From: an uncultured Lachnospiraceae bacterium
Lineage (GTDB): Bacteria; Bacillota; Clostridia; TANB77; CAG-508
Direction of reading: 5' to 3'
DNA: 64,000 bases
Assembly (NCBI GenBank): GCA_964489885.1
Contig: CAZAZX010000002.1
Span: forward strand, 24,531-88,530
Both the position numbers and the translations under genes were made by a program. The notes under the pieces were generated by a model. It ran no database searches. It was given only the letters and a program-made list of their open reading frames with translations, and was not told the origin of the DNA. Below are positions 10,380 to 59,779 of this stretch, in pieces (position 1 is the stretch's first letter; the number at the start of each line of letters is the position of its first letter).

Positions 10380-11654
10380 ATGCAAATAATTGAAAATACA
10401 AAAGTTAAAGAAAAAGCTTATATAGAAAAATTAGAAAATGGTTTAACTGTTATTATTATTCCTAAAAAGGGAATAAAGAAAAAGTATGCAATTTGGGGAA
10501 CTAGATATGGTTCTAATAATAATAAATTTATTGTACCCGGAGAAACTGAAATTACACAAGTTCCTGATGGGGTAGCACATTTTTTAGAACATAAAATGTT
10601 TGAACAAGAAAATGGAAGAAATAGTTTAGACGTATTAACAAGTCTAGGTGTTAATGCAAATGCTTATACAACAAATGATCATACAGCATATTTGTTTGAA
10701 TGTACTGATAATTTTGAACCTGCCTTTTCAGAACTTGCAGATTATATTCAACATCCTTATTTTACAGATGAAAATGTTGAAAAGGAAAAAGGAATTATTG
10801 GGCAAGAAATCAGTATGTATGATGATGACCCAGGATGGTCAGTCTATCTAAATGCAATGAAAGCAATGTATGTTAATAATCCAGTTAGAATAGATATAGC
10901 AGGAACGCAAGAAACAATTTCTAAGATTGACAAAGATATTTTATATAAATGCTATAAAACGTTTTATCATCCAAGCAATATGGCCCTAGTTTTATGTGGA
11001 GATTTTGAACCAGAAAAAATGATAGAAATAATAAGACAAAAACAAGTACTAACACAAAGACAGGGTGAAATTAAAAAGATATTCGAAGATGAACCTGATG
11101 GAATAAATGAGAAAGAAATAAAAGTTCAAATGGAAGTAAGTATTCCTAACTTTATAATTGCATATAAAGACAAGCTTGAAAAAGAAAATATAGTTAAAAG
11201 AAGTTTAACTATATATATGTTATTAAACATTATTTTTGGAAAAAGTTCTAATTTATATAAGCAACTATATTCAGAAGGATTATTAATCCAAGAGCCAGAT
11301 ACTGCGTATGAATACTCATACGATTATGCACATATTGCAATTGGTGGACAATCTACAGAACCACACAAAATTTTAGATTCTTTAAATAACGAAATTAAAA
11401 ATTTGATTCAAAATGGAATTAATGAAGATGATTTCAACAGAGTTAAAAAAATGGTTTATGGAGATTATGTAAAAGAATATAATGACGTAGGAAATATAGC
11501 AAGAATGTTTTTAACAGATTATTTAAAAGGAATTAATAGTTTTGACTATTTAGAAACAATAGATATTATTACAAAAGAATATGCAGAACAATTGCTAAAA
11601 GAGGTTTTTAATGAAGATAAACAGATTATATCAATTGTAGAGCCAAAACAATAA
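10380..11654 (+). CDS. M16 family zinc peptidase (insulinase-like) with an HxxEH active-site motif
   Basis: The HFLEH zinc-binding motif (within VAHFLEHKMFEQENG) is in the N-domain. The track ORF starts at 10356, but the ATG at 10380 has the better RBS. Confidence 0.8.
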   Translation: MQIIENTKVKEKAYIEKLENGLTVIIIPKKGIKKKYAIWGTRYGSNNNKFIVPGETEITQVPDGVAHFLEHKMFEQENGRNSLDVLTSLGVNANAYTTNDHTAYLFECTDNFEPAFSELADYIQHPYFTDENVEKEKGIIGQEISMYDDDPGWSVYLNAMKAMYVNNPVRIDIAGTQETISKIDKDILYKCYKTFYHPSNMALVLCGDFEPEKMIEIIRQKQVLTQRQGEIKKIFEDEPDGINEKEIKVQMEVSIPNFIIAYKDKLEKENIVKRSLTIYMLLNIIFGKSSNLYKQLYSEGLLIQEPDTAYEYSYDYAHIAIGGQSTEPHKILDSLNNEIKNLIQNGINEDDFNRVKKMVYGDYVKEYNDVGNIARMFLTDYLKGINSFDYLETIDIITKEYAEQLLKEVFNEDKQIISIVEPKQ

Positions 11655-11836
11655 AAAATAATAGATTCTTTTACTCTTTACTGTCATATTTAGTCATATA
11701 TTTTAGGAAAAACAAAAAAATTTAAGAAATTTGAATTATGATTTTCTTGAAAAATACTGTATTATTATTGAAAGCATTGTAAAAATATGGTATTATATGT
11801 ATAGAGTTTTATTTGACCATTAGGAGAGTGGTGAAT

Positions 11837-11989
11837 ATGATAAATGACGAAATATGTAGGCTGAGAGAAAAATTGAATGATAGCATAATTAATGGAGAAA
11901 ATTACGAAAAAATATATCAAATAAGTGTTGAACTAGATGAATTAATTGCAAATTATTATAAAGAAGAATATAAAAAACAAAAAACGTAG
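11837..11989 (+). CDS. Spo0E-like sporulation regulatory protein (aspartyl-phosphate phosphatase family), 50 aa, not in the ORF track
   Basis: MINDEICRLREKLNDSIINGENYEKIYQISVELDELIANYYKEEYKKQKT is a Spo0E-family helix-loop-helix pattern. RBS GGAGAG lies upstream. The gene ends at the terminator at 12031. Confidence 0.55.
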   Translation: MINDEICRLREKLNDSIINGENYEKIYQISVELDELIANYYKEEYKKQKT

Positions 11990-12030
11990 GAGAATAAAGA
12001 AATATTAAAGTTAATGAACTTGAGCTAAAA

Positions 12031-12066
12031 TAGAGAGGCGGTCAATAAATGACCGCCTCTTTTTGA
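12031..12066. terminator. Bidirectional GC-rich hairpin terminator between the Spo0E-like gene (+) and the 12078 gene (-)
   Basis: agaggcggtca-ataaat-tgaccgcctct with T runs on both sides. Confidence 0.6.
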
Positions 12067-12077
12067 GGTTGCTGACT

Positions 12078-12596
12078 TTAGCGCGAAAAATAAAGATAAA
12101 CTCTATTTTCCGTAATAACGTTAAGACCCATTTCGCTTGCGAGCCTACGGTAGAGCGCCCTGTCAACGGTTTTTGGAAGGTATATTGGTTCACCAGAAGA
12201 AATCGCATTTGCAATGTTCTGAAGAGCCGTTTCCTCCCGGACATCCAATGGCTTTGAAGTAGACATTGAGCCGAGTTCAATGTTCTGCCCCATTTGACCA
12301 TGAGCAGCAATTACGTAAACGTAATTGGGCTGCTCATACCGCCCGCCATTGCGACGAGCAATTTCTCGCCGCTGGCGTTCCCAGCGATTACGATCCTTAA
12401 TGGACCGCAAAAACTGATCTGAATATTCACGCAGAGTTTGCCGGTATAGCCTTACGGCTTCATAGCGGGTCTCTCGCTTGATATCGTCCCAAAAGGAACG
12501 ATGGCTGCTGGCTTCAGCCTCAGATGGCGCAAAATTTGCACCCATCATGAAGGCGAAAAGCACAGCTAAAAAGCAATTAACAACTTTCCGCAACAT
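12078..12596 (-). CDS. Small secreted protein (signal peptide ...APSEAEA|SS) in a second GC-rich foreign island
   Basis: The G+C is far above the flanks. Strong RBS GGAGGAGG. Several in-frame CGG codons. The product is an Arg/Glu-rich secreted protein. Confidence 0.6.
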   Translation of the reverse strand: MLRKVVNCFLAVLFAFMMGANFAPSEAEASSHRSFWDDIKRETRYEAVRLYRQTLREYSDQFLRSIKDRNRWERQRREIARRNGGRYEQPNYVYVIAAHGQMGQNIELGSMSTSKPLDVREETALQNIANAISSGEPIYLPKTVDRALYRRLASEMGLNVITENRVYLYFSR

Positions 12597-12731
12597 AAGT
12601 CATTCCTCCTCCTTTTAAGTAGAACACATTGCGATTAATAAAATTATACTATAATTTTCAATAAAAATCAAGAATTTATATGCTTTTTAAGGTGTTATAG
12701 CGCAAAAAACTAACATTTTTTATTAAAATTA

Positions 12732-12760
12732 TTGCATTTTATAAAAACATAGTTTATAAT
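12732..12760 (+). promoter_or_regulatory. Putative promoter of the pilin-like gene cluster (TTGCAT-17-TATAAT)
   Basis: -35 at 12732-12737 and -10 at 12755-12760. Confidence 0.35.
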
Positions 12761-12810
12761 TAAATTATAAGTATGGAAAAAAATGAGTAAAATAAAAAGG
12801 AGGCAATAAT

Positions 12811-13176
12811 ATGTCAAAAAAATTATTAATGGGAGTAGTAGCAGTCTTAACAGCTTTATTATTATTTACAATGGTTGTTCCAGCTTTTGCAGTAGACAAT
12901 CCGGATGAATTTTTTGATCCTGAAACATCTGGAGGGGTGGCTGATAATTTTAGAACAGCATCTAATACAATAATAGGTGTAGTTCAAGTTGTAGGAACAG
13001 CAGTTGCAATTGTTATGTTAATATGGTTAGGTATAAAATATGTTATAGCAGCACCAGATGAAAAGGCAAATATTAAGCAATCTGCCTTTATATATATAAT
13101 AGCTGCAGTATTTATTTTCGCAGCATCAAATATATTGGCAATTCTTCAAAGATTTTCACAAGACATTACTAAATAA
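12811..13176 (+). CDS. VirB2/TrbC-like T4SS pilin family protein (signal peptide plus two hydrophobic helices), paralog 1
   Basis: Signal peptide ending PAFA, then IIGVVQVVGTAVAIVMLIWLGIKYV and FIYIIAAVFIFAASNILAIL. The topology is that of TrbC/VirB2. Confidence 0.5.
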   Translation: MSKKLLMGVVAVLTALLLFTMVVPAFAVDNPDEFFDPETSGGVADNFRTASNTIIGVVQVVGTAVAIVMLIWLGIKYVIAAPDEKANIKQSAFIYIIAAVFIFAASNILAILQRFSQDITK

Positions 13177-38338: not shown

Positions 38339-39575
38339 ATGAAAAAGGTATTATTTGCTGTAATTTTTGTTTTATGCTTTACAAGCTTTGTTTATGCAGA
38401 TGACGAAGATTTTGAACAGTTAAGTGAATTTGAAATTTGGGAAGATATTAGACAAACATCTGCAAAAGAAAGTAATTTGCCAAACGTAAATTCTAGAGCA
38501 GCAGTAGTAATAGATAGAAATTCTAAGGCAATTTTATTTGGGAAAAATGAGAATGATAAAAGACCAATGGCATCAACAACCAAAATTATGACTGCTATTG
38601 TTTGCTTAGAAAATGGAAATTTGAATAAAGAAATAGAAGTATCTCCTAAAGCTGCCGGAATAGGTGGATCATGCTTAGGCCTAAAAAAAGGTGATAAATT
38701 AACTTTAAACGATTTACTTTATGGCCTTTTATTGCGTTCACGGAAATGATGCTGCAGTACAAATTGCAATAACAATAAGTGGAAGTGTTGAGAATTTTGC
38801 AGAATTAATGAATAAAAAAGCAAAAGACATAGGATTAAATAATACGCACTTTATTACACCACATGGATTGGATAATGAAGAACACTATACTACTGCTTAT
38901 GAATTAGCTTTATTAACAGACTATGCATTAAATAATAAAAAATTTGCCGAAATAGTAAATACTAAGTATTATACAATACATATTAATAACCAAGAAAAAA
39001 ATTTAAAAAATACAAATGAACTACTTGGTGTGTTAGATGGTGTAAATGGTGTAAAAACAGGTTTTACAAATAAGGCAGGTAGATGTCTTGTTACTTCTAC
39101 ATCAAGGAATAATTGGCAAACTATTTGTGTCGTTTTAGGTGCAGATACTAAGAAGATTAGAACAAATGACAGTATAAAACTAATAGAATATGCGTATAAA
39201 GATTTTGAACTAATAGATGTTGGTAAAATTATAGAGAAAAAATATAATTTATGGAAAAGTGAGGAAGAGCCTCAAATTTATATTAATAAAGGCGAGAAAG
39301 AAAAGATACAAACATATATAGAAAAAATTCCTTATGAAAAATATCCAATATTAAAGAGTAATAAGAAAAATATTGATTGCTCAATAGAAAGTTTTAAATT
39401 TTTAGAAGCCCCTATATACCAAAATACTGAAGTCGGAATAATTAAATTGGAAGTTGATGGTAAAGAAATTTGTAATATCAATATAAGATGTGGAAAAACC
39501 ATAGAAAAAAAGTCAATTGGTGATTATTTTAGAATTTTATTCTGTGGATTGGGTACTTACTTAACAAATTTTTAA
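38339..39575 (+). pseudogene. D-alanyl-D-alanine carboxypeptidase (DacF/PBP5-like), split by a +1 frameshift at the in-frame CGG at 38741-38743 inside the SGN motif
   Basis: SxxK = ASTTK and KTG = VKTGFT. ...LLLRS|GNDAAV is broken as tca[c]ggaaat. Confidence 0.7.
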
Positions 39576-44967: not shown

Positions 44968-47900
44968 ATGAAGAGTAAGAAGATTTTAAAAATAGTTTTA
45001 ATTTTGAGTATTGCAATAATTGCAGCTGTTGCATTAGTCTCAAAAGTATTTTCTGATAGTAGTAGATATTATGTTTTAGATGTCGAACATGCTACTGCTG
45101 ACAGTGAAGGTAATACTAAAAAAGATGACAATTTAAGAATTACAGAAAAAATTAAAGATGATGGTAAAGGAAATTTTGACACTGAAACATTAAATTATGA
45201 GGTAACAGTTTCAAATAAGAATGGAGAAAACAGCATAACACAAATTGCTATGGTTGTTGATACATCATATAGTATGCAAACTAATGATTCAGAAAGTAAA
45301 GCAAAAAGTGAAGCTAAAACATTAGCTCAAGGAATTTTTGATAATCTTTCAAAGTCAGCAAATTTGCAGATGAGTGTATTTAGTAATAACGGGCAAAAAT
45401 GTGCATTAACAAATAATGTAACATTAATTACTAATGCTATAAATGGATTAACAACAGGGGAATCTGAAGACTGTAATAATGGGCTTCAATTAGCTTATGA
45501 TTCTCTAAGTGGAGCTGCACCTGCTGGAAAAACATTAAATAAAATGATTATTTATTTTACAGATTCAACAGATAATGTTTCTCAGAAAATGAAAGATATA
45601 GTTAAGGCAGATCCTAGTTTAAAATTAATAAGTGTTTTAGTTGATTTAACAAGTTCTTCATATTTAGATTTGGATACTGCAAAACCAGTTGAAGGAGAAG
45701 TATATGTTTTACCAGCTTCTGTTAATGAAAGCGATATTTTACCAAAAGACGTTATAATATACGATCCAAATAAAATATATGATGAAGTAAATTTAGCTGC
45801 AAATAGCGTAAAGGTGGAAAACTTCTTTGACCAAGGTATAATAGAAAACTTTGATATTTCTTCTTCTGATTTTTCAGCAACAGAGGGAACAACTGTAACA
45901 CCTAAAGAAGAGAATGGAAAAATAATAGGATATGATTGGAATGTTGGTAATTTAAAATTACAAGAATCTAAAACATTGACATTTTCTATAAAACTAAAAT
46001 CTGATTCTGAATTAAACAAAATGCCTATTAATTCAAAATATATATTTGAGGACATATATACAAATGAGAAACAAAGTATTACATATAAAAAATATAATAC
46101 AGATATTGAAGTAACAATGGATGGACTAGATAAAAGAGAAGGAACAGAGGCAACAGTTGTTAAAATTTGTGAAGGATATAAATTAAAAATTAAAGCTGTA
46201 AGTGATGCAAATAGTGACTTGTCAGTAGAAGGAGTTAAAGTAAATATTACGGGAGTAGACACAAATGGAAAAGAAATATGTAATGTTGAAAAAACTACAG
46301 ATTCAAATGGCTATGTTTTAATTACACCAGATGATTCCTCAGCCTTAAGAAGAGATGGAAAAATAAAATATACTATAACTCCAATGGATACAAATAATCT
46401 TGTGGGATATACATCTTCTGATTCAATGAGTTTTGAAATTGATAATAATAAAGCAAGCAAAAAATTAATTTTTGATGATTTATATTCTGGAATAAAGAAT
46501 GCAATAATTGAATCAACAAGAACAGTCGAAGTTGAAATACCTATAAAAAGTTTAACATTAGATTTAGAAATTCATTCACAAGAACTAAATAATTCTAATA
46601 TAAACATTCCACAATGCAAATTTGAGTTAATTCAACCAAAGCTAAATAGTAAATATGAGATGTCAGTATTATATGGTACTACAGATGATAATGGTGTTTT
46701 ACACTTTAATCCAACAGTCATGACAAAAGACGGTACATATAATTATATTTTAAGACAGGTTTCTGCACCTAATGGATATGAAGTAACAGATTTGGCAATG
46801 ATAAAAATTGAATTTAAAAATGGAAGAATTGTAACACCAAGCTCAAACTCAGACTCATTAAAAGTTTTATATAATGATGCTGTATCTGCAGTCCTTGATG
46901 CTTCTTCTAAAACATCAAATACAGATCTTGTTAAAGTTTTTGTAGGAGATGAAAGCTTAAAAAAAGATCCATTTAAAATACAAATCAATGTAGCTGATGC
47001 AGATGACAACACTATAAAACTAGATGGAGTAACATATAATATTACAGTAACTGATTCACAAGGATTCCCAATAACACAACCTGCCGTAACAGATGAAAAT
47101 GGCCAAATTAATATAGAAGGATATGGAACAGGTTATTTAACACTTGAAATTGAAGAAAAATCAACAAAAGTAGGTTATGAAGAAACTAAGGATAAAAAAG
47201 AAATTATATTGCAACATGTAAATGGTAAAGTTACAATTCTAAGTTGTACACCAACAAGCATCTATAATACAAACGCATATAAAACAGGATATGTACTTGA
47301 TGGAGGAAATCAAATAGGTGTAAAAGTAAACTTAACAAGTAAGAAAAAGACAGAACAAAACATTATAAAATTAAAAATTGTGGATTCAGACCAAACGTAT
47401 TTACCTGCAGGTGAAGAAATAGTATATGAATTATTTGATGAAAATAATGTAAGTTGTGGTATGAAGGGAACTGATTCAAATGGAGAATTAAAATTTACTA
47501 TAGGCAATAGGGAGCCAAGAACATATAAATATACTTTAGTTCCTGAAACTATGACTGCACCAGCAGAATATGATACATCAAAAATTGAAACACCAATTAA
47601 TTTGGATGTAACTTTTGATAATAATGGCATAATTACAAATGCTACTAAAACTTCAACAACATATTCATCAGTAATTTCACAAAATTTCGAAATTGTAAAT
47701 AGCAATAAATTAATTGAGAATACTTATGAATTGACAATTGGATATTATGTAAGAGAAGATGCTACAATAAAATTCACAGTATTACTTAGAGATGAGAAAA
47801 ACATGACAACACCACTTGATAACGCAAAATATAATATTGATATAGAATATGAAACAACAAAGGGTGGAGAAACTGTAACAAGAACAAAAAAATTAGTAAA

Positions 47901-50900
47901 TAGAGCAACAAATAGCTTTGGTAAATTATCAACAATAATACCTAAATCTGGAAATATAACTGTCAAAGTTAAGGAAGTAACTGCAAAACCTGGATATGCA
48001 TTAGATTATACAGAACAAGAATTTAATATTTCATGTTTATCTAATGGAAAAATTGTTATTAATAATCAAACACCAACATCTCCAAAAGGAGCAGTTGTTG
48101 ATTCAAATCAAAAAGAAGTAATATATTACGACTACAATAGAGGAAGAAATTCATCTGATACCTATATAAACTTAACATTAACAAAACAAGATACGCAAAA
48201 AGCTTATGTTGATGGATTAATGCTAGAGGTAGAAAGTGAAAAATTATTAGATGGAAGTGGAGCTAAACTAGATTCAATAATTGCAACAGGTTCGCAAACA
48301 GCTGGAGGAAAAGAAGTAACAGGTTCAATTGTTTATGATTATGATGACTATATGAAAAAAATACCAGATTCATTTACAATTAAAATACCAGAAGAAATTA
48401 AAATAAATGAAGAAGGAGTATATGAATTTAAAGTTAATGAACTTACTACTAATGATGGCGGAAATACATATGTAAAGAAAAAAAATACAGAAGTTAAGTT
48501 TAGATTAATTTTTAGAAATAAAGATGGTGATGTTAAATTAACAAATGTTGAAACTATTTATGGCAATAGATTAGTTATAGATAAAAATTTTTCAAGTGCA
48601 TCAGATTCTAATGAAGGAATTCAAAAACAAAATGAGCTAGGTGTTTTCTTATCAAATATACAAATCGATTTATATACAAACTATGATGATGTTGGAAACC
48701 TTTCATTAGACCTAAAAAAATTTACTAAAATTAAAAATAGTGCTACAGGTAAAGAAGATATAAAGTTAGATGGTGCAGAATATGATCTTAAAATACTAAA
48801 CCCAGATAATAGTATTGTTAGAAAGAAAATAAAAATAGACAATGGAGATAATAGCGATTCAATAGAACTTACAGGACTTAATGTATATAAGGGAAGTATT
48901 ATACAACTAACAGAAATAAAAGCACCAACAGGCTATGCACTAAATGAAGCTACAGAAAGTTTTGAAGTTAAATCTGTTGATGTTTTCGATTCAGATCCAT
49001 CAAAATGTGAAACATTTGAAATGGAACATATTGACAATTCTTATAATCCTTCAAGAGCTACTTTAAAACAATTAGCTGCAGGAGTTAATGCTGCTGGAAA
49101 TATAAAAGAAAATTATGAAATTGATTTATATGATAATTTATTACAAACATTTAATATGCAAATTCAGACTGTAGATGCAGAAAAAAATAATGTAAATGGA
49201 TTTACTTTTGATGTATCAACAGATCAAGGTGTAGAAGAAAAGGATGTTCCAGTATTTGAGAATAGAACTATAGGAGCAAGTCCTGCAAATACTGTTGTTA
49301 AATATACGATTAAGTCAAATAAAACAGCTCAATATTATAAAAAAATTAAAGATGATATTATACTTAATGTGGTTTTTGATGCGAATGGCAATGTAGATGT
49401 TTCATCAACGAAAGATCCTACAAATCAATCAGATAGTAATTACAATAAAACATGGAGAATTAAAAATTTAACACAGACAATTGAGGGAAATCTTGAACTA
49501 GAAATTACAGTTGAACATCAACCACCTTTAGATGTAAGAGTATTAGAAAAAGATAAAATAACTGATGAAGTAATAAAGGATGCCTCATACAAAATTACTC
49601 CATCTAATGAATTAGATGGAACTGGTAGTGCTAAAAATGATTTGCAAAATTATATTGCTAAAATGTTAGTAGGATACAAAATTGAAGATGGAACTGTAGA
49701 TTATACATTAACTCAGACTGACATAGATGCTAGACATGAAAAAATTGATGATACTAAATTTGAGATAGAATATAAAGATGGGGAAATAAATAAGGCTTCT
49801 TTAGTTGGAACAACTCCAACTGATAAGAAAGCTCCGAAAATTGAGATTAAAACAGATACTAATAATAATTCAAAATATGTAGAAATAGATGTATATGCGG
49901 AGCCTAAAGTTTTATTTAAAGTAACTAATTTAGGATATTTTGATAACCTACAACTACAGGGGGCAAAATTTAAAATTACTGAACAACAAAAACAAGAGTC
50001 TTCTGAAGGAACAACTGATGCTAATGGATTCACAAACATGTTAAATTCAACGTATGGAGAAGATAATAGCAAAATATTCAAAGTTGAACAAATTACTGCA
50101 TCAAAGGCGAATACAGGTTATGCAACTGTAGAAGATTTTTATATAAAAGTTGATTTTGATAGCAATAGAGAAATAACAAAAGTGGTTGTTTCAGACGAAA
50201 CAGGAACTGAAATTACGCCAAATAGATTTCTTAAAGTAGGTTTTATAGACAATCCAGATGCGGATGATCCAAATACACCAGCGTATGAGTTTCAACCTGA
50301 TGATGTAACAATTGAAGTAAAAAACTATCCAGAATTTAAAATTAATATTTTTGATTATGACAGAAGAGATGAAACTACACCAATTGAAGGAACTAAATAT
50401 AAAGTTACATCGAAATATGAATATAATAATAAAGATGTAGATTTTATGAAAACAGATGGCGTTGTAACAGATAGTACAGGTTTGGGAGTAGCACATTTAG
50501 ATAGAACAAAATTTGATACTATTGTGACTTATACAATTATAGAAAACACACCAGGAAATGGATACCAAACAATTGGAACTGAAAAAGATTCTAACAATCC
50601 ACCTGCTAATAACGTTGGATACCCAACTATAAAGTCAAGTATAAATGTAGTAGTTGAATTTGATTCAGATGGATATGTAAAAAATGCATATCTTGAAGAC
50701 AAGGATAATGTAGAAGTTACCAATATTGCTAAGGTAAGTACAATTAGTGGAGATACAGGAAAATTTCAAATTAATTTACAATTGTTAAATAATCCTCTAT
50801 TGAAGATAAATATTACATCAGTAGATAGATTGAATACTTCAACTAAAATACCACATAATGCGTATACAGTAGAGGGATATACAGACAAAGAGGTATCTGG

Positions 50901-53900
50901 AACTAAATATTCTACAAAATATACTAATGCATCTTCATTAAATAAAGTAAATACAAATGGTAAATCAGATAGTCTTTATACTGATATAAATGGACAGGTA
51001 ACAGCTTATATGGACAGAACACTAGAAAATCAAGAAATGAAATATGTTATTACACATATTAAAAAAGCTGTTGGGTACGAATGGTTAAAAACAAATCCTG
51101 TTGAATTAAAAGTTTTGTATGATGCAAAAGGAAAAATTGATGGTACACCAAGTGTATCAGTTGGAGATAAAGATGTTGTAGTAGAATCATTTGATAAAGA
51201 TAATTTTGAAATTAATTTAACAATTTATAATGATGAAATCCAAGAATTTGGAATACATTTAACAACACAAGATACCTATGATTCAGATAAAAAAATAAAT
51301 CAGATGAAAGTCGAAGCATTTTTAACTGACGGAAGTACAAGCTATGTTTCAGATGGATATCATCAATTTGTAGGAAATGATGCTTTATTAACAGGTGCAG
51401 ATAGAGATAATGATGGAACTCCAGATTTAGCTTATGGAGAAGATTATAAAACAATGGGTGAGTATATAGTTGAAGGTGTTCCAGGTAATGAAGGCACAAC
51501 AGGTGGATATAATAGAATCTTAAGACTTGTTGTAAAAAATGATTCATCACCAAAAGGATATTATCTAGATAGTGCAGATGGAAGTAAAACAGGTAAAAAT
51601 GTGGGTCATTATAGAGGCTCAGAATATTTTGGGGATTCAAGATATCAAACAGTAAAATATCAATGGTTAATAAGTGTTAGCTTTAGTGATGAAGGAAAAA
51701 TTACAGGTGCAAATATAATAAGCGGATTGAATCAATATATTGGTTGGTTAACAGATGATAGATATCTTGAAGTATCACACACGAATTATACTTTAAATGT
51801 AAAAATGAAATTCTTCCCAATGTTAGAACTAAATGTAGATGCAATAGATAACTATGTGAAGGGTGCAAATGGAAATAATTTAAAGATTGGTGGAGGAAGT
51901 TATACAATTAGTACACAAAGACATTCTATAGGAGGAAGTTATTTAGATGAATTTGTTACAGCGGGATATATTGGTTATCCAGAATCTTGTTCGTTCGCAA
52001 GTGATGCCTGGGTAGCACAATATACAGATACAGATGGTACAGTTGTAAGAGGTCACTGGAAAAATGATAAATGGATTCCAGAACATAGCGGAAAGAATGG
52101 CATAATTACAGGACATTGGAGTAGTGAATATTGGAGTGGTGACAAGTGGAATTCAACTGCGCACTTATCCCCAGGTAGTATTGCAGTATCAGGACATAGA
52201 TATGAAGATAATAATACCTTGTGTGTACCAATAGAAAATAATTATACTAGATTGTTCTATGTTTATGAAGACAAAGAACCAACAAATTATCAAAAATATG
52301 ATGATAGATATAGTATTTATTATGATCAAAAAATGGTAGCTATAATAAGCATTGTGTTTGATGAATATGGTGAAATTGATTATGACCATTCAATTACAAG
52401 ATATTTAACAGATAATTCTGGAAATTATACTGGTGCAACGATACCAATTTATTTTGATGAAAGTGGAACAGGATATTTATCAAGCAATAATTTAAAGGAA
52501 TATAATTATACCTATACACAACATCCTGCAAAAACTACAACAACAGTTTCAATTGGATATGCCTTAACAACAAAAATTCATGTTACAGCTGTTGATAATA
52601 TTTCTGGTAAACCATTATCAAATATTAAAATGTATCCATTTGTAAACAATACATATAAAACAAATACAAGTTATGAATATGGTACAACAGGGGATAGAAA
52701 TACAAATGGCTCAGGTAATGTATACCAAGTATATTGGGGTGCTGCAGATCCAAATACACAAGATAGATATATTTGGGGTTCTAGCAGATTAGGATCTGAT
52801 TATAATGGATATTTCTTACCAGATGATATGACAAAAGCTGACATAGGTGGTAAAGGAACAGCATTTGATTATTATTCAAAACTAGATGTAACTTATGACC
52901 AGGATGGTAGAATTTCTGCTGTAACATCAGCTGCAAAAGATTTATGGGGAGATGATACAACCTCAGATATTAAATGGAATTCTCAAACAGGTGAAATTTG
53001 GGTTAATATATTATATTGTAGACAATTCATAACACAGTTAGAAAAATTTGACTTCTATGATCCAACAATTAATTTATCAGCTGTATTTAATGTGATTTCC
53101 AATAAGGGAGTAAAAACAACTATGTCACCTAATATAAATTCACCTGCAATAAAAGCATTAGGAAAAGTATATAAAAATGAGACAGTAAAATATACCTTAT
53201 CTGAAACAGAAGAACCAGAAGGATATTATCCAATTGAAAATTCATTGGATTATCTAGTAAGCTTTGACGAAAATGGCAATATTACAACGAACAGTATTTC
53301 AATCCCTGAAGGTGATTCAAAAAATTATTTAGAAACAATAAGAACATCTGCTACAACAGAAAATAATAATAAAACAAATTCACCTGATTTAGCATTAAAG
53401 GTTAAAAATAAGGCGGCATTTGAATTAAACTTAAGATTAATTGATAAATTCTATAAAGATGATGGAATAGGAGATGTAAAAATAAATGTTACAAATAGTA
53501 AGGGTGACCAGGCAATTGGAAATCCACAAACAACTGGTAAACAGGGTTATGTAGATGTTCTTGCAAGTCCAGTATATCCAGATGAAACAGTAATTTACTA
53601 TATTGAACAAATTAGTAAGGCTAATGGATATTACCAAATGGATGGAAGAATCGAGTTAGAAGTAACCTTTAATAAGGAAGGAAAAATTAATGGATATCAA
53701 ATTGTAAAAGATGCATCAACAGTAAAAGGTGGATTTAATGCATTTTGGAAGACGAATCCTAGCGATGGAAAAATATATAAAGATGCAGCTGCAGTTAATT
53801 TAATTAATGGTGGCCGTAATATAGGTTTAGAGTTAACTAATATGCCAGAAGATGTTAAAATGGGTCTATATAAGTTTGATGAAATAACAAATAAGCCAAT

Positions 53901-56900
53901 GGATTCTGTTAAGTTTAAAGTTACAAAAACTAATATGAATTCAGGTGAAAAAACCGAAATTAAATTTGACGATAATTTAATAACAGACAAAAATGGTAAT
54001 ATTTTATTCACCATAGATAAGTTTGAAGAAAGAAGTAATGTCCAAACATATAAATATACTATAGAAGAAATAGAAACACCAAAATCATATAGAACAATGG
54101 AAAATATTGAATTTATAGTAATATATAATACTGATGGAAGTATACAGTATTCAAGTGCGATTTTGTCAAATGGTGGAATACAGAATACTAAAGCAAGTAT
54201 AAATGTTTCAAAGGTAAATACAAAACTAGGCTTTAATGGTGAAAAAGTTCATATGATATTAAATGTACCTAATGATAATGCTTTTGATTTAATAATAAAA
54301 GATGAAGATGCTAATTATGCAGGATTTGGAATAACTGGAACAAAATATGATGTAAGTATAGATGGAATAGCATATACACCAAGTGAAACAAATTCTAATG
54401 GCGAAACTTATTTAAGCAAAATAACAGATACAGGTAAATTAACAATTAATATTTCTGAAAAGGAAGCTGGAGATGGATATGCAACAAACTTAACAAATAA
54501 GGCAACAGTAGTATTAAATAAAGGTCAAGAAGTATATTCTTTAGATCTTGATGATACACAAGAAGGTAAAGTAGATAACAAGAATGCAACTATAACTAAA
54601 GAAGTAATTTTAAATGATACTAAGACAACCATAACTAAAGCAATAATAAAAATAGATGAAGAACATGGTAAAGTTTATGTAACATTTAAAAATGAGTCAA
54701 AATTAGAAATCACTGTATTTAAAAAGGATTTCCAAACACTTGAACCATTAAAAGGAGCTCAATTTGAAATAACAGCGCAACAGGTAAATTCAATATCTGG
54801 AGATAATATCGGTGAACCAATTACAATAACAACAACAGGTGTTGATGATACAACAGATGCAAATGGCAATTTACACTTTGATTTAGGAATAGCACCACAA
54901 TCACAAAAATGGGTATACACATTTAAAGAAATAACAGCACCAGAAGGATATAACAACCTTATTCCAGAGACAAAAATTGTTGCAACATTTGATCAATACG
55001 GAAGAGTAACACTAGATAAATCAACATCCTTAAGAATGGACTCATCAATAATTCATACTGATTCAAAAGTTAACCATAACAGCAAAAATTGTAGAAGTAT
55101 AGTTGCTACTATATATAATGGTGAAGTACCACCAGGATATAAGGTTAAAGTTTATAAAAAAGATGCTCAAACAGGTAAAACTGTAAACGGAGCTGGAATT
55201 CAAATGAAGATTACTGATCAGAATGGAATTATGATTCCAATTACACCAAAGACGCAAGCATCAGGAAAAAATGGCCAAGTAATTGAAACTTCAAATATAG
55301 GCTTAGATGGACAGATTCATACAGATAAAGAAGTGAAAGAAGGAGGGATTATATTAGCTGACTCAGGTGTTGCGTATATTGATAATATTGATTATGAAGG
55401 CACTGTAAATATTCAAGTTAGTGAAGCAAAAGCACCACTTGGATATATAATTGGAGGTAATAAGACAAGTGGAAATGTTCAAATAGAAGCTAAATATACA
55501 CTAGATCCAGCAAATTTTGATGCAAATGTAGATTTAAAACTAATAAATAATGATGGTTTAGATGTTTCTATTGATAGTGTAAAACGTGAAATAATAATCA
55601 ACTTATATGATGATCCACAAGTAGCCTTCCATATAACAGACTTAGATTACAATACTGGAGGTCCAGTAAAAGATGTATATTATGTTGTTACTTCAGTAAA
55701 AACAACAGCAGCTAGTATTGTTCCAACAGATTTGAAGGTAACATCACCAACAACAGATGAAAATGGAAAAGTAGATTTTAATGCAGGAGTACCTTATGCA
55801 GGACAAACATTAATTTATACCTTACATCAAAATACACCTGCTGAATATCAGCCACTGGTAAATGATATTGAATTACAAGTTCAATTTGATGCAAATGGAA
55901 ACGTAATAAGTTGTATGTTGTTGAACAATAATGATATGGCAACAGTTGTAAATCCAATAGAACTATCACTAAAAGATCCAAATTTAATACTTGGAAAGGT
56001 TATTTACCTAACAGTTAAAAATAGAAGAACAATTCCTGATTATAAAGTTCAAGTAGAAAAACACATTATTGATTATGGAGTTGAAAAGACAGACTTTAGT
56101 AGAATTCTACCTGGAGCAACATATAAAGTAATTGTGCATCAAGAAGATGGAGGAAAAGAATATACTAAATTCACTTCAACAACGGATGATTATGGCTTAA
56201 TTGATGTTCCTTCTCAATATTTTACAGCAACTGGAAACATAACTGTAACTATACAAGAAATAATTGCACCAGATGGATATGAACTAAATGGAACACCACA
56301 AGTATTAAAATTCTATAGAGATCCTGTAACAGGTAATATGACAGAAATAAGTACAACTGAAAACTTTAGCTATAAATTTATAAATACAGATAGTCCATTG
56401 TATTCAACTGGACAACCAGTAAAAGTTGTATTGCAACCATTTGATAAACAAGACGGAGATAAATTTACATTAAAGTTAAATAAATATTCAACTTTAACAG
56501 GTAAAAATATTGAAAATAACCATGCTAAATTTACAGCTGCTATAATACAGGAAGATGAAGCAACTGGAGATTTAAAATATGAATATAACTTTGAACAGGA
56601 ACTTGAAACAGATGATATGGGTAACCTAATGCAAGAAAACTTACAATTACCAACAGAACCAGGAGAATATAAATTAGTTTTAACAGAAACAGAAGCACCA
56701 AGTGGATATGTAATTGAAAAGGATCCAATAGAATTTAAGATAACAATTGATAAAGACCCTGAAGGCTTCCCAATCATTACAAAGGCAATAGCTCTTGGAA
56801 AAGATAAAGAAGGAAAAATTATAGAATTAAAAGGACCTACTGATGAAAATCCATTTGCTATTGAATCTAGATATCAGTTCTTATCAGTAAGTATTGGTAA

Positions 56901-58671
56901 TACTCCTATACCAGGTTATAAAGTTATGATTGAAAAACATACACTAGATACGGACATTGACTTAAATGCTTATGAAAGAACTCTTCCTGGAGCTACATAT
57001 GAAGTATTAGTACATGAGGAAGATGCTGGAACAGAAGATGTAAAATTTGTTGAAACATCAGATGCAAATGGAATAATAGATATACCAGATTTAGTATTCC
57101 ATGGATTTGGATATATTACTGTTAAAATTAAAGAGCTTAAAGCACCTTATGGGTATGTAATAGATGATACAGAAAGAATTACAAGATTGTATAGAGATCC
57201 TGAAACAGGTAACTTACAAGAAATAAGTTCAAATGTTAACTATACATTAACTAATACTACTGATAAGGATTATGTAAAAGGTGAACCTGTTAAAGCAATA
57301 TTAAAACCTGTTGATAGACAGGAAGCTGGAATGTATACAATTCAAGTTAATAAATTTGCAAATAAAACTAAAGAATTAATTACAGATAGTAGTGCAAGGT
57401 TTAGATTTGAATTTATAAAAGAGGCAACAGAGTCAGACCCAGGATACCAATCAATAATAGGAACTTATGATACAAAAGATGGTAAGTTTTTACAATCCGG
57501 CTTGAAATTACCTGATGAAAGTGGAGATTATATACTTAAAGTAACAGAAACAAATGCGCCAGCTGGATATGCTGTATTAAATTCACCAATTATTATAAAA
57601 TTAAAAGTTGGCGAAGACAGTGAACATAATAAAATAATTGAAAAAGCAGAAACAGATAATAAAAATGTAAATTTAATAGCAAGAAACCAATATATATTAT
57701 TACAAGTATTTGATTATGCGGTAGACGAATTACAAGATGATGAATATTCACTAGATATTACAAAAGTTGATGCTGAAACAAATCAACCAATAGCAAATAT
57801 GGCTTTATTTAAGGTTTGGTTACCAGATAAATTGAATACAGCAGTTTATACTGAAACATCACAAACTGTATTAGGACCAGGTAAATTAGATTACTGCTTC
57901 GTTGAACAAGATAAAGATTACTCTGTAAGATTAACACATATGAACCAACCAGCAGGACCAGGAAAAGTACAATACATATTTAGAGAGGTTGTGGCACCAG
58001 AAGGATACGATTTAATAAAGAAGGACTTAATATTAACAATTGATTTTGAATATGATGAAAATGGTAAATTAAGGTTTGAAAGTGCAACATCAAGTGATCC
58101 TAATTATTTAAGAATTAATACACCAACACCAAGTCCAATTGACAAGAGCTTTAGTGTAGATATTTTAAATTATCTATCTAAAGAAGATGACTTATACTTG
58201 AAATCAAAAGAATATGTAATTGGAGATAAGCCAGATGGCTGGACAAGATCTATAACAGAAACAGAATATAAAGATGGAGACAGAATTATTTCAAAAGTAG
58301 AACCAAGAACAACACTTGCAGATTTCTTAAGTAACTTAGATACAAATGGCACTCCAACTGTAACAAAATCAGATGGAACAGCAGTAGGTTTAGGAGATTA
58401 TGTTGGAACAAATATGAAATTAACAGTAACAAAGGGAGATAAGAAAATTGAATTAACTATATCAGTAAGAGGAGATGTATCTGAAGATGGTGAGGTAACA
58501 CTTCAAGATTATTCAGATTTAAAACATTTTATGGCTAAGAAGATTAAATTTACTGAAGCTGAAATAATAGCCGTAGACTCAAACGAAGATGGAAAAATAA
58601 CACTTCAAGATTATTCAGAAGAGAAACATCTGTTAGTAGAACAAGCCAGAATAAAGAAAAAAAATAAGTAA
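44968..58671 (+). CDS. Giant (4567 aa) secreted adhesin-like protein: signal peptide, N-terminal vWA domain (DTSYSM MIDAS), dozens of Ig/prealbumin-like domains, C-terminal type-I-like dockerin
   Basis: Single uninterrupted 13.7-kb ORF with RBS AAAGGAG. The last ~70 aa match duplicated dockerin Ca-binding repeats (GDVSEDGEVTLQDY / DSNEDGKITLQDY). Confidence 0.75.
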   Translation: MKSKKILKIVLILSIAIIAAVALVSKVFSDSSRYYVLDVEHATADSEGNTKKDDNLRITEKIKDDGKGNFDTETLNYEVTVSNKNGENSITQIAMVVDTSYSMQTNDSESKAKSEAKTLAQGIFDNLSKSANLQMSVFSNNGQKCALTNNVTLITNAINGLTTGESEDCNNGLQLAYDSLSGAAPAGKTLNKMIIYFTDSTDNVSQKMKDIVKADPSLKLISVLVDLTSSSYLDLDTAKPVEGEVYVLPASVNESDILPKDVIIYDPNKIYDEVNLAANSVKVENFFDQGIIENFDISSSDFSATEGTTVTPKEENGKIIGYDWNVGNLKLQESKTLTFSIKLKSDSELNKMPINSKYIFEDIYTNEKQSITYKKYNTDIEVTMDGLDKREGTEATVVKICEGYKLKIKAVSDANSDLSVEGVKVNITGVDTNGKEICNVEKTTDSNGYVLITPDDSSALRRDGKIKYTITPMDTNNLVGYTSSDSMSFEIDNNKASKKLIFDDLYSGIKNAIIESTRTVEVEIPIKSLTLDLEIHSQELNNSNINIPQCKFELIQPKLNSKYEMSVLYGTTDDNGVLHFNPTVMTKDGTYNYILRQVSAPNGYEVTDLAMIKIEFKNGRIVTPSSNSDSLKVLYNDAVSAVLDASSKTSNTDLVKVFVGDESLKKDPFKIQINVADADDNTIKLDGVTYNITVTDSQGFPITQPAVTDENGQINIEGYGTGYLTLEIEEKSTKVGYEETKDKKEIILQHVNGKVTILSCTPTSIYNTNAYKTGYVLDGGNQIGVKVNLTSKKKTEQNIIKLKIVDSDQTYLPAGEEIVYELFDENNVSCGMKGTDSNGELKFTIGNREPRTYKYTLVPETMTAPAEYDTSKIETPINLDVTFDNNGIITNATKTSTTYSSVISQNFEIVNSNKLIENTYELTIGYYVREDATIKFTVLLRDEKNMTTPLDNAKYNIDIEYETTKGGETVTRTKKLVNRATNSFGKLSTIIPKSGNITVKVKEVTAKPGYALDYTEQEFNISCLSNGKIVINNQTPTSPKGAVVDSNQKEVIYYDYNRGRNSSDTYINLTLTKQDTQKAYVDGLMLEVESEKLLDGSGAKLDSIIATGSQTAGGKEVTGSIVYDYDDYMKKIPDSFTIKIPEEIKINEEGVYEFKVNELTTNDGGNTYVKKKNTEVKFRLIFRNKDGDVKLTNVETIYGNRLVIDKNFSSASDSNEGIQKQNELGVFLSNIQIDLYTNYDDVGNLSLDLKKFTKIKNSATGKEDIKLDGAEYDLKILNPDNSIVRKKIKIDNGDNSDSIELTGLNVYKGSIIQLTEIKAPTGYALNEATESFEVKSVDVFDSDPSKCETFEMEHIDNSYNPSRATLKQLAAGVNAAGNIKENYEIDLYDNLLQTFNMQIQTVDAEKNNVNGFTFDVSTDQGVEEKDVPVFENRTIGASPANTVVKYTIKSNKTAQYYKKIKDDIILNVVFDANGNVDVSSTKDPTNQSDSNYNKTWRIKNLTQTIEGNLELEITVEHQPPLDVRVLEKDKITDEVIKDASYKITPSNELDGTGSAKNDLQNYIAKMLVGYKIEDGTVDYTLTQTDIDARHEKIDDTKFEIEYKDGEINKASLVGTTPTDKKAPKIEIKTDTNNNSKYVEIDVYAEPKVLFKVTNLGYFDNLQLQGAKFKITEQQKQESSEGTTDANGFTNMLNSTYGEDNSKIFKVEQITASKANTGYATVEDFYIKVDFDSNREITKVVVSDETGTEITPNRFLKVGFIDNPDADDPNTPAYEFQPDDVTIEVKNYPEFKINIFDYDRRDETTPIEGTKYKVTSKYEYNNKDVDFMKTDGVVTDSTGLGVAHLDRTKFDTIVTYTIIENTPGNGYQTIGTEKDSNNPPANNVGYPTIKSSINVVVEFDSDGYVKNAYLEDKDNVEVTNIAKVSTISGDTGKFQINLQLLNNPLLKINITSVDRLNTSTKIPHNAYTVEGYTDKEVSGTKYSTKYTNASSLNKVNTNGKSDSLYTDINGQVTAYMDRTLENQEMKYVITHIKKAVGYEWLKTNPVELKVLYDAKGKIDGTPSVSVGDKDVVVESFDKDNFEINLTIYNDEIQEFGIHLTTQDTYDSDKKINQMKVEAFLTDGSTSYVSDGYHQFVGNDALLTGADRDNDGTPDLAYGEDYKTMGEYIVEGVPGNEGTTGGYNRILRLVVKNDSSPKGYYLDSADGSKTGKNVGHYRGSEYFGDSRYQTVKYQWLISVSFSDEGKITGANIISGLNQYIGWLTDDRYLEVSHTNYTLNVKMKFFPMLELNVDAIDNYVKGANGNNLKIGGGSYTISTQRHSIGGSYLDEFVTAGYIGYPESCSFASDAWVAQYTDTDGTVVRGHWKNDKWIPEHSGKNGIITGHWSSEYWSGDKWNSTAHLSPGSIAVSGHRYEDNNTLCVPIENNYTRLFYVYEDKEPTNYQKYDDRYSIYYDQKMVAIISIVFDEYGEIDYDHSITRYLTDNSGNYTGATIPIYFDESGTGYLSSNNLKEYNYTYTQHPAKTTTTVSIGYALTTKIHVTAVDNISGKPLSNIKMYPFVNNTYKTNTSYEYGTTGDRNTNGSGNVYQVYWGAADPNTQDRYIWGSSRLGSDYNGYFLPDDMTKADIGGKGTAFDYYSKLDVTYDQDGRISAVTSAAKDLWGDDTTSDIKWNSQTGEIWVNILYCRQFITQLEKFDFYDPTINLSAVFNVISNKGVKTTMSPNINSPAIKALGKVYKNETVKYTLSETEEPEGYYPIENSLDYLVSFDENGNITTNSISIPEGDSKNYLETIRTSATTENNNKTNSPDLALKVKNKAAFELNLRLIDKFYKDDGIGDVKINVTNSKGDQAIGNPQTTGKQGYVDVLASPVYPDETVIYYIEQISKANGYYQMDGRIELEVTFNKEGKINGYQIVKDASTVKGGFNAFWKTNPSDGKIYKDAAAVNLINGGRNIGLELTNMPEDVKMGLYKFDEITNKPMDSVKFKVTKTNMNSGEKTEIKFDDNLITDKNGNILFTIDKFEERSNVQTYKYTIEEIETPKSYRTMENIEFIVIYNTDGSIQYSSAILSNGGIQNTKASINVSKVNTKLGFNGEKVHMILNVPNDNAFDLIIKDEDANYAGFGITGTKYDVSIDGIAYTPSETNSNGETYLSKITDTGKLTINISEKEAGDGYATNLTNKATVVLNKGQEVYSLDLDDTQEGKVDNKNATITKEVILNDTKTTITKAIIKIDEEHGKVYVTFKNESKLEITVFKKDFQTLEPLKGAQFEITAQQVNSISGDNIGEPITITTTGVDDTTDANGNLHFDLGIAPQSQKWVYTFKEITAPEGYNNLIPETKIVATFDQYGRVTLDKSTSLRMDSSIIHTDSKVNHNSKNCRSIVATIYNGEVPPGYKVKVYKKDAQTGKTVNGAGIQMKITDQNGIMIPITPKTQASGKNGQVIETSNIGLDGQIHTDKEVKEGGIILADSGVAYIDNIDYEGTVNIQVSEAKAPLGYIIGGNKTSGNVQIEAKYTLDPANFDANVDLKLINNDGLDVSIDSVKREIIINLYDDPQVAFHITDLDYNTGGPVKDVYYVVTSVKTTAASIVPTDLKVTSPTTDENGKVDFNAGVPYAGQTLIYTLHQNTPAEYQPLVNDIELQVQFDANGNVISCMLLNNNDMATVVNPIELSLKDPNLILGKVIYLTVKNRRTIPDYKVQVEKHIIDYGVEKTDFSRILPGATYKVIVHQEDGGKEYTKFTSTTDDYGLIDVPSQYFTATGNITVTIQEIIAPDGYELNGTPQVLKFYRDPVTGNMTEISTTENFSYKFINTDSPLYSTGQPVKVVLQPFDKQDGDKFTLKLNKYSTLTGKNIENNHAKFTAAIIQEDEATGDLKYEYNFEQELETDDMGNLMQENLQLPTEPGEYKLVLTETEAPSGYVIEKDPIEFKITIDKDPEGFPIITKAIALGKDKEGKIIELKGPTDENPFAIESRYQFLSVSIGNTPIPGYKVMIEKHTLDTDIDLNAYERTLPGATYEVLVHEEDAGTEDVKFVETSDANGIIDIPDLVFHGFGYITVKIKELKAPYGYVIDDTERITRLYRDPETGNLQEISSNVNYTLTNTTDKDYVKGEPVKAILKPVDRQEAGMYTIQVNKFANKTKELITDSSARFRFEFIKEATESDPGYQSIIGTYDTKDGKFLQSGLKLPDESGDYILKVTETNAPAGYAVLNSPIIIKLKVGEDSEHNKIIEKAETDNKNVNLIARNQYILLQVFDYAVDELQDDEYSLDITKVDAETNQPIANMALFKVWLPDKLNTAVYTETSQTVLGPGKLDYCFVEQDKDYSVRLTHMNQPAGPGKVQYIFREVVAPEGYDLIKKDLILTIDFEYDENGKLRFESATSSDPNYLRINTPTPSPIDKSFSVDILNYLSKEDDLYLKSKEYVIGDKPDGWTRSITETEYKDGDRIISKVEPRTTLADFLSNLDTNGTPTVTKSDGTAVGLGDYVGTNMKLTVTKGDKKIELTISVRGDVSEDGEVTLQDYSDLKHFMAKKIKFTEAEIIAVDSNEDGKITLQDYSEEKHLLVEQARIKKKNK

Positions 58672-58807: not shown

Positions 58808-59779
58808 ATGAAAGAAGTATATTTAAAACCAATAGTATCATTAATCTTAATATTATGTATAATACTTGCAAGTATTAATGTATATGCATATTCTATTTCT
58901 GTTAAATTATCATCTGATTCAAAAAAATTAGAACCCGGGAAAGTTTACACTATAACAGCAGAAATAACTAATATTGATGCTGGAGATGGAATAGATACTA
59001 TGATGGGAAAAATAAATTATGATACAGAGATATTTGAAAGAGCTGTAGAAGATTTTGATATTACAAATGGATGGAATCCAACATTTGATGAAGAATCTAA
59101 CATATTTGTTTTAGATAGAGGTCGTAAAGTAAGTAAGCCTTCAAAGTTTTTAACAATTAAGTTAAAGGCAAGAGATAATATTGAAAAAGATTCAACAGTT
59201 ATTAGCCTAGAAGATTTAGAAGCTTCAGGTGGAAGTGTGAAAAAAGGTGGAACTGGAGATATAGAAATAAATGGAACAAATTTATCAATGGTTAAACCAG
59301 CAGAAGAGCCAGAACCAACACCAGAACCAACACCAGAACCAACACCAGAACCAACACCAGAGCCAACACCAGAACCAACACCAGAGCCAACACCAGAACC
59401 AACACCAGAGCCAACACCAGAGCCAACAACAGAACCAACACCAGAGCCAACACCAGAACCAACACCAGAACCAACACCAGAGCCAACACCAGAGCCAACA
59501 CCAGAACCAACACCAGAACCAACACCAGAGCCAACAACAGAACCAACACCAGAGCCAACAACAGAACCAACACCAGAGCCAACACCAGAACCAACAACAG
59601 AACCAACTAAAAAAGAGACAAAGGAAGAGACGAAACAAGAAGTTAAAGAAGAAAAAAAGGACACAGCACAAGGAGTTTTACCTTATGCTGGTGAAAATGA
59701 AAATATTTATTTATTATTTGCAATGACATTTTTTGCAATTAGTGGTATAATAAGCTACATAAGATTTAGAAATTTGTAA
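58808..59779 (+). CDS. Cell-surface cohesin-like domain protein with a (TPEP)n linker and C-terminal LPYAG + TM + basic tail
   Basis: Signal peptide. N-domain is paralogous to those of 39879 and 59799. C-terminus VLPYAGENE...ISYIRFRNL. Confidence 0.6.
59309..59607 (+). repeat. Tandem 12-bp repeat (ccaacaccagaa/g, about 25 copies) encoding a (TPEP)n linker
   Basis: Directly visible. It accounts for the spurious antisense ORFs in the track. Confidence 0.9.

Follow-up and report, generated by a model that had tools for sequence, protein, structure and literature searches.

Base composition and codon usage that depart from those of the host are routinely taken as signs of horizontal transfer. 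Among the described cases close to the gene studied here are atypical 'ORFan' islets: they are short, lineage-restricted and fast-evolving, their codon use is unlike that of the host, and they belong to no annotated family. Other precedents are also relevant. First, selection on synonymous sites for the secondary structure or stability of the mRNA is a general phenomenon. Second, rare codons control developmental genes in Streptomyces (the bldA/TTA system). Third, Firmicutes have dual-function structured RNAs, such as RNAIII/hld of S. aureus and VR-RNA of C. perfringens. We analysed a 64-kb stretch of DNA from an uncultured gut member of the Clostridia (the window, by which we mean this whole stretch) and, within it, a gene for a 172-aa orphan protein that shares traits with all of these. 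It resembles the islets in every respect just listed and differs from them in being rich in guanine and cytosine (GC) rather than AT-rich, syntenic across a deep divergence, compositionally stationary and devoid of a mobility signature. It is a counter-example to the use of GC content and codon usage as a criterion for foreign genes: very probably it is a native, resident gene whose composition is maintained, despite a three-fold excess of GC at third codon positions (GC3) and codons that are near-forbidden in the host. The combined explanation that we favour, with slightly better than even confidence, is that of a resident, fast-evolving envelope-protein gene selected for a GC-rich, highly structured transcript. 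Searches of the literature returned no description of the family or of the phenomenon.

Base composition and residency of the gene

The open reading frame (ORF) of the gene has 47.2% GC, against 29.0% for the window. In 300-bp windows it reaches a maximum of 0.49-0.51, when the mean over the whole stretch is 0.290 (200-bp windows, standard deviation 0.048), and on both sides GC is down to 0.20-0.28 within ~150 bp. By codon position the values are 0.55/0.42/0.45, as opposed to 0.415/0.335/0.127 for 27 long ORFs of the window. The amino-acid content, with its 22 Arg, accounts for just part of this excess; composition of the protein alone is insufficient because GC3 is 0.45 in the gene and 0.127 in the host. 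The Arg codons are 6 CGG, 5 CGC, 5 CGT, 2 CGA, 3 AGG and 1 AGA, whereas in the host AGA accounts for 79% of Arg codons and CGG and CGC for 0.5% each. Such composition is rare: in a survey of ~1100 non-overlapping ORFs from the window and related loci, 15 pass a cut-off of GC>=0.38 and GC3>=0.36, and these are mostly members of the same family or genes in the same slot, a second GC-rich gene (island #1, discussed below) and tRNA artefacts. Much of what the first-pass annotation of this DNA had described therefore stands, namely the gene model on the minus strand, the strikingly high G+C and the several in-frame CGG codons, of which we count six. Reassignment of CGG is known from some AT-rich lineages, and we rejected it here: columns with CGG, CGC, CGA or AGG align mainly with Arg, as in the standard code. 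The codon bias of highly expressed genes was rejected as well, since rpsU uses AGA for 7 of its 8 Arg codons.

The relatives of the protein are few. A word-indexed search of 5.8 billion proteins gave only four variants, at >=90% identity; an exhaustive HMMER search of 1.84 billion protein representatives added five true relatives (P0006-P0010, 29-40% identity), and a profile search added one more (P0014). The family totals ~10 sequences of 27-98% identity, all metagenomic, and these two collections hold no relative from beyond the clade. Three HMMER matches to eukaryotic repeat proteins, and the single local match of a scan of JGI metagenomes, which falls inside a giant ORF, were discarded as spurious. 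The orthologues have 167-195 aa and keep length, frame and signal-peptide layout at 27-40% identity. All relatives with a readable neighbour, P0006-P0009 and P0014 included, are convergent with a Spo0E-like gene (the contig of P0010 is too short for neighbours, and that of L094 shows none), and the longer contigs carry pilin genes on the other side too (window species, L089, L090/L091, L092, L098/L099). The surroundings have diverged markedly: between the window and L090 or L092 the M16 peptidases are 69-76% identical, and housekeeping neighbours share ~75% protein identity with those of the relatives. The relatives rank alike by identity to the window whether one takes the Spo0E-like protein (81, 71, 67, 67%) or the 172-aa protein (38, 35, 32, 30%), a parallel that fits co-divergence together with fast evolution of the latter. 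Positional counterparts also exist in the closest GTDB genomes (L009-L013), which are uncultured gut Clostridia whose second M16 peptidase (M16b) is 67-74% identical to that of the window. They occupy the same position and strand, encode 162-191 aa that include a signal peptide and a helix rich in Arg, Lys and Glu, and have a GC of 0.36-0.41 in a locus of 0.28-0.32.

The composition goes with the slot. All orthologues have a GC of 0.42-0.47 and a GC3 of 0.31-0.47, when their flanks have 0.24-0.30 and the host GC3 is ~0.13-0.17; CGN codons dominate Arg in every one of them, and AGA is rare. The CGN codon chosen at conserved Arg columns differs among orthologues, which indicates synonymous turnover within the GC-rich set. 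The reading of the gene as a compositionally foreign single-gene insertion, put forward in the first-pass annotation, fails because syntenic homologues in related Clostridia, at 27-40% identity, carry matching GC at the same locus. We consider the recent arrival of a cassette from a GC-richer donor, landing between the Spo0E-like gene and the pilin cluster, to be very improbable. It would account for the strong contrast in composition and codons, for the sharp boundaries and for the absence of the gene from the proteins of GTDB species representatives. Several observations oppose it. First, there are the syntenic orthologues of equal GC, in flanks diverged to ~75% protein identity. Second, synonymous sites turn over without net decay of GC3. 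Third, no donor lineage emerged from the searches run, and tblastn against plasmid and phage collections gave no match. Finally, we found neither direct repeats bracketing the gene nor an integrase or adjoining tRNA; the nearest tRNAs lie 29.5 kb away, and tRNA-Gly and tRNA-Cys are the only ones inside the window.

The clearest view of the substitution process comes from a 90%-identical allele, that of L007. Between it and the window allele the rate of nonsynonymous divergence (dN) is 0.054 and that of synonymous divergence (dS) 0.57, a ratio of 0.10, and the 172-aa protein is under purifying selection. The proportion of synonymous differences is 0.40 overall and 0.72 in the helix region. There (codons 30-90) synonymous sites are saturated, with a dS of ~2.5 and a dN/dS (omega) of 0.04; in the signal peptide and the C-terminal domain dS is 0.27. 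Third positions that differ between the two alleles comprise 21 changes from GC to AT versus 23 from AT to GC. This balance and the synonymous turnover imply a composition that is stationary and maintained rather than decaying. The same data bear on the trivial explanation of an artefact, either a chimeric assembly or a chance ORF in non-coding DNA of high GC. GC-rich DNA is poor in stop codons, and long chance ORFs are possible in it within an AT-rich genome; yet the identical gene with identical junctions is present on at least nine contigs that come from several independent samples, the ORF keeps its length, frame and signal peptide at 30-40% identity, dN/dS is low and part of the protein has a confident structural model. 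The probability that we leave to an artefact is practically negligible.

The divergence between strains is confined in space. Across ~1440 bp of flank (the terminator, the Spo0E-like gene and most of M16b) the window and L007 show 3 differences, i.e. 99.8% identity, whereas ~14% of positions differ within the gene. Two further alleles, L095 and L097, are mosaics: they resemble the window save for one patch that matches L007. The strain pattern looks like recombinational exchange of old alleles under purifying selection. Diversity-generating retroelements and cassette-based variation were rejected as its source; the variation is mainly synonymous, and no part of the gene recurs in the window as a possible template or archive. 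M16b has a second divergent patch at its 5' end, which suggests that such imports are common in the population.

These mosaics are also what one would cite in favour of an ancient arrival, with or at the edge of a ~26-kb block resembling a type IV secretion system (T4SS), in the ancestor of the clade, after which GC was kept for reasons unrelated to RNA, e.g. by recombination-driven GC-biased gene conversion at a surface-protein locus that diversifies. The position of the gene is in line with this. In ten more distant relatives, 0.4-4 kb separate the Spo0E-like gene from a D-Ala-D-Ala carboxypeptidase gene; in the window this distance is 26 kb, which places the 172-aa gene at the margin of a T4SS-like block that is old and specific to the clade. 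On the other hand, the remainder of this block has a host-like GC, and the GC3 excess ascribed to GC-biased gene conversion in bacteria is small in comparison with 0.45 versus 0.13. Such conversion would not, moreover, order synonymous sites into the sense-biased pairing described next. We regard this scenario as unlikely, though not negligibly so.

Folding of the transcript

The native coding sequence has a minimum free energy of -199 kcal/mol, against -157 +/- 6.6 for versions with shuffled synonymous codons (z -6.45). The same shuffle gives z of -5.35, -3.74, -3.67, -2.95, -2.34, -2.20 and -1.36 for orthologues and of -3.95, -3.17, -2.48, -2.05 and -0.41 for the positional counterparts. Taken together, 13 genes of the slot have a mean z of -3.1, and 12 neighbouring genes one of -0.2 (range -1.9 to +2.1); the Mann-Whitney test gives p = 1e-4, a value that overstates independence because the slot genes are related. 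Regional clustering of GC was ruled out as the source of the excess, which persists when codons are shuffled in blocks of 25 (z -4.3 for the window, and -4.3, -2.9, -2.9 and -1.9). GC content alone was also ruled out, as the GC-elevated ORFs of L073 and of L009 (5' of rpsU) have z ~0. The transcript of 563 nt folds at -207 kcal/mol, with a z of -6.0 relative to dinucleotide shuffles and of -3.5 for the antisense strand. In 9 of 10 genes the sense strand has more excess energy than the antisense strand, an indication that the RNA and not the DNA is concerned.

This matches selection on synonymous sites for mRNA structure as it is known elsewhere, in that a native coding sequence out-folds its synonymous shuffles with a bias for the sense strand. 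The effect in the 172-aa gene is unusually large, extending over the whole coding sequence, and it is tied here to the three-fold GC3 excess and, in the available sequence, to the gene family of one slot. Synonymous positions would be held at ~45% GC through host-rare codons arranged for stable folding of the sense transcript, and the purpose may be a nuclease-resistant, long-lived and slowly translated mRNA, i.e. post-transcriptional tuning. We put selection at the level of the transcript, taken as a mechanism by itself, at about even chances. A broader version appears doubtful to us, if possible: that the synonymous sites of the family, and independently those of island #1, have long been selected for a GC-rich, heavily paired sense transcript, whereby a secreted factor linked to a VirB2-type pilus locus would come under conserved post-transcriptional control, be it through extreme stability or slow translation of the mRNA, through gating by rare codons or through a second function of the RNA.

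Codon rarity might itself be the selected trait, with folding as a side effect. In such a mirror image of bldA/TTA, the host-rare codons CGG, CGC, CTC and GCG would demand scarce tRNAs, for instance at a developmental stage. The likeness to bldA/TTA is that a sporulating lineage has a gene rich in codons nearly absent from the host: 11 of the 22 Arg codons are CGG or CGC, the bias is present in all orthologues, and sporulation genes are nearby (Spo0E-like, YunB, SipL, YabG). The differences are the reversed composition and the use of many rare codons rather than one. The candidate promoter, furthermore, is sigma-70-like, the window provides tRNA-Gly and tRNA-Cys only, and gating would leave unexplained the arrangement of synonymous codons that favours pairing beyond what content gives. 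We find this rare-codon gate clearly unlikely.

Alternatively, the ~0.6-kb transcript could double as a structured regulator in the style of RNAIII or VR-RNA, perhaps of the Spo0E-like gene or of the pilin operon. A computed fold so stable and sense-biased, in a transcript of ~0.5-0.6 kb with an ORF, is indeed what these RNAs have in common with the 172-aa gene, and the fixed convergent arrangement with the Spo0E-like gene would suit the proposal. Here, however, the ORF fills nearly the whole transcript and the protein is strongly constrained; the few and divergent sequences reveal no conserved consensus fold or covariation, and a strong terminator separates the gene from its Spo0E-like neighbour. 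A hidden non-coding RNA identity was rejected, as Rfam has no match to the gene, be it at the gathering score or with E<=5. A dual function of the RNA strikes us as quite improbable.

For selection on the transcript, which we favour over these alternatives, what appears to be conserved is the strength of folding and not a particular structure. Several points weigh against this explanation or the protein role attached to it. A specific conserved fold was sought with RNAalifold across orthologues and among the four close alleles, and none was found: the structure conservation index of the codon alignment is ~0 (few, divergent sequences at 40-50% nucleotide identity); the alleles have a single compensatory pair, and both wobble changes and broken pairs are numerous. 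The purpose is probably not a specific conserved RNA fold. Sequestration of the Shine-Dalgarno sequence and start codon (-14.3 kcal/mol) occurs in the window allele only; we rejected it as a conserved trait, the other orthologues having -5 to -11 kcal/mol, within or near the control range. All folding energies are computed, and the tests are not independent because the genes of the slot are related. The host genome is known over 64 kb only, a view outside which its tRNA set and expression lie. The counterparts of L009-L013 resemble the family only weakly: their E values in hmmsearch run from 5e-4 to 7, and the 90% probability from hhalign applies to just 50 helix columns. The pilin cluster exists without the 172-aa gene in three relatives (L039, L040, L061), and inherited synteny may be all that ties the gene to the pilin locus. 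The unmatched fold of the protein, searched against PDB and BFVD, offers no functional hint.

If the explanation holds, a 'foreign-looking' composition would be an adaptive trait of a native gene, in a clean natural case, and the locus would offer, in a bacterium of extremely high AT content, a testable example of strong synonymous-site selection for the structure of mRNA. We do not regard it as a new kind of system. It appears to be an ordinary lineage-specific gene for a predicted secreted protein, whose function we infer, with an unusual and apparently adaptive property at the nucleotide level.

The protein and the pilin locus

The product is predicted to be exported. Its N-terminus has MLRK, 18 hydrophobic residues and the motif APSEAEA|SS, i.e. 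the n-h-c layout of a Sec signal peptide with an AXA site; cleavage at AEA|SS is deduced from the AXA rule. This layout is kept in 8 of the 8 aligned members, and the AlphaFold2 model, built from an alignment of just 8 sequences, has a helix at residues 2-20 followed by a disordered linker. Next comes a long Arg/Glu-rich helix with the invariant residues R49, R56, R71 and R74, then a compact domain with the element order beta-beta-alpha-alpha-beta-beta. The signal peptide and the Arg/Glu richness proposed at first pass are thus borne out by the relatives and the model; a kinship with DUF3889-like proteins, raised then as a point to check, is not: neither DUF3889 nor any other Pfam or NCBIfam family matches at E<=0.1. 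The mature form would be a basic protein of ~17 kDa (isoelectric point ~9.9), and the 172 residues include no conserved residues of catalytic type. PHROGs yielded nothing significant (best E 0.037), a search of PDB sequences with the family profile yielded no match, and Foldseek found none at E<=0.001 in PDB and BFVD, nor any with E<0.2 in PDB. We conclude that this is a tiny new protein family, with a confidently predicted fold that has no match in the databases searched.

A plausible role follows the setting. The gene would be vertically inherited and restricted to a small clade of uncultured gut Clostridia of ~29% GC, and its basic product, once exported through Sec, would act at the envelope. 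Linkage and charge suggest an extracellular or envelope-binding accessory of the VirB2-type pilin or T4SS-like locus, and the arginine helix may dock onto anionic wall polymers or onto the pilus. VirB5-type minor pilins and other small exported accessories of T4SS are alike in having a signal peptide and a long helix and in being encoded beside VirB2-, VirB3- and VirB4-like genes. The 172-aa protein matches no T4SS protein in sequence (Pfam) or in fold (Foldseek against PDB), its C-terminal domain is alpha/beta, and its gene is missing in some relatives that bear the cluster.

The pilin genes open a chromosomal T4SS-like block (12811-~29400). Four VirB2-type paralogues are followed by PrgI, TraC-like and VirB4-like genes, and the block also encodes large membrane proteins, a C39-like peptidase and two CAP-domain proteins; among the proteins scanned in it we saw no relaxase or integrase. 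Its first genes keep a conserved order in L009-L012, L090, L039, L040 and L061. Upstream of the 172-aa gene the order is topA, trmFO, rplM, rpsI, yabG, veg, sipL, a LysM gene, yunB, island #1, rpsU, yqeY, two M16 peptidases and the Spo0E-like gene. Relatives have lgt (prolipoprotein diacylglyceryl transferase) between M16b and the Spo0E-like gene (L090 8877-9677, L010 2615-3475). It is absent there from the window, which has ~180 bp left (11654-11837); in L009 lgt is broken into three ORFs, and in L092 it is truncated. The D-Ala-D-Ala carboxypeptidase gene of the window (Peptidase_S11, 38339-39575, plus strand) is split into the overlapping ORFs 38339-38749 and 38721-39575, which may mean that the gene is frameshifted or a pseudogene, or that the sequence contains an error.

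Flanking signals and other GC-rich patches

The coordinates of the gene, its protein segments and its surroundings are collected in Table 1. All orthologues share the strong Shine-Dalgarno sequence (AGGAGG), and the region of the candidate promoter is identical across the four strain variants. The perfect GC-rich bidirectional terminator noted at first pass was confirmed by folding: it lies between the convergent genes and consists of a perfect 11-bp stem (7 GC) and a 5-nt loop, with a folding energy of -21.8 kcal/mol and a z of -5.9, set between an A-run and a T-run. Analogous GC-rich hairpins occupy the same place in 5 related loci (L089, L090, L092, L098, L009). An out-of-frame AUG stands right after the Shine-Dalgarno sequence, 7 nt 5' of the true start (12594-12603, minus strand), and the ORF beginning there, of 8 codons (MTYVAESC), overlaps the real start codon.

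Table 1. Features of the 172-aa gene and of its surroundings (positions in the window)
Feature	Position	Strand	Evidence or remarks
CDS (coding sequence) of the 172-aa orphan protein	12078..12596	minus	ATG start; stop codon 12078-12080; GC 0.47, GC3 0.45
Signal peptide (predicted), codons 1-29: MLRK, hydrophobic core, AEA-SS cleavage	12510..12596	minus	sequence, alignment, AlphaFold2
Long Arg/Glu-rich alpha-helix, aa 35-82	12351..12494	minus	AlphaFold2 and alignment; most strain-divergent part
C-terminal compact alpha/beta domain (predicted), aa 92-171	12084..12323	minus	AlphaFold2, predicted local distance difference test (pLDDT) ~90
Shine-Dalgarno sequence AGGAGGAGGA, 7 nt 5' of ATG	12604..12613	minus	sequence
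Candidate sigma-70-type promoter TTGATT, 17 nt, TATAAT	12643..12671	minus	consensus match only
Bidirectional intrinsic terminator hairpin, common to the 172-aa gene and the Spo0E-like gene	12034..12060	both	folding
AT-rich divergent intergenic region, 172-aa gene to first pilin gene	12597..12810	none	
Spo0E-like gene, convergent neighbour	11837..11989	plus	Pfam PF09388, E 7e-10
First of four tandem TrbC/VirB2-type pilin genes	12811..13176	plus	starts the chromosomal T4SS-like block
Island #1, 121-aa secreted (predicted) Arg/Tyr/Gly-rich orphan	7699..8064	plus	GC3 0.48

The first-pass annotation had attributed the same design to island #1. The resemblance holds for what the two genes have in common, i.e. 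a predicted secreted, Arg-rich product, a high GC3 and an over-folded mRNA (in island #1, CGT makes up 9 of the 13 Arg codons, and the folding z is -3.7, or -2.5 with block shuffles). It does not extend to the proteins, which are unrelated: the BLASTP match (E 0.005) reaches from the signal peptide into the first part of the helix and no further, and the hhalign alignment, with a probability of 7%, takes in just the signal peptide. Among 5.8 billion proteins, island #1 finds no homologue but itself. The relatives have trmFO immediately 5' of rpsU (L090 12802-14391, L009 6062-8146), whereas in the window a block of ~5.6 kb (~2600-8200) stands between them, with rplM, rpsI, yabG, veg, sipL, the LysM gene, yunB and island #1, which places the latter at a rearrangement junction. 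Just 5' of rpsU, L009 has a different ORF (7415-7783), with a signal peptide, an Arg/Pro/His-rich sequence and a GC of 0.41.

Unrelated GC-elevated ORFs (GC 0.35-0.40, GC3 0.33-0.43) also stand just downstream of the Spo0E-like gene in distant relatives that have no pilin block: L024 11715-12065 (minus strand), L071 +138..728 after the Spo0E-like gene (minus) and L073 9065-9550 (plus). That of L024 has no signal peptide and a folding z of -4.95; that of L073 has a z of +0.65. Finally, the window has a third GC-rich patch (59181-59700, up to 0.535) within an ORF on the plus strand (58808-59779) for a putative surface protein. Its GC results from the amino-acid composition of a long (TPEP)n repeat, and the ORF adjoins the gene of a giant surface protein of 4567 aa (44968-58671).

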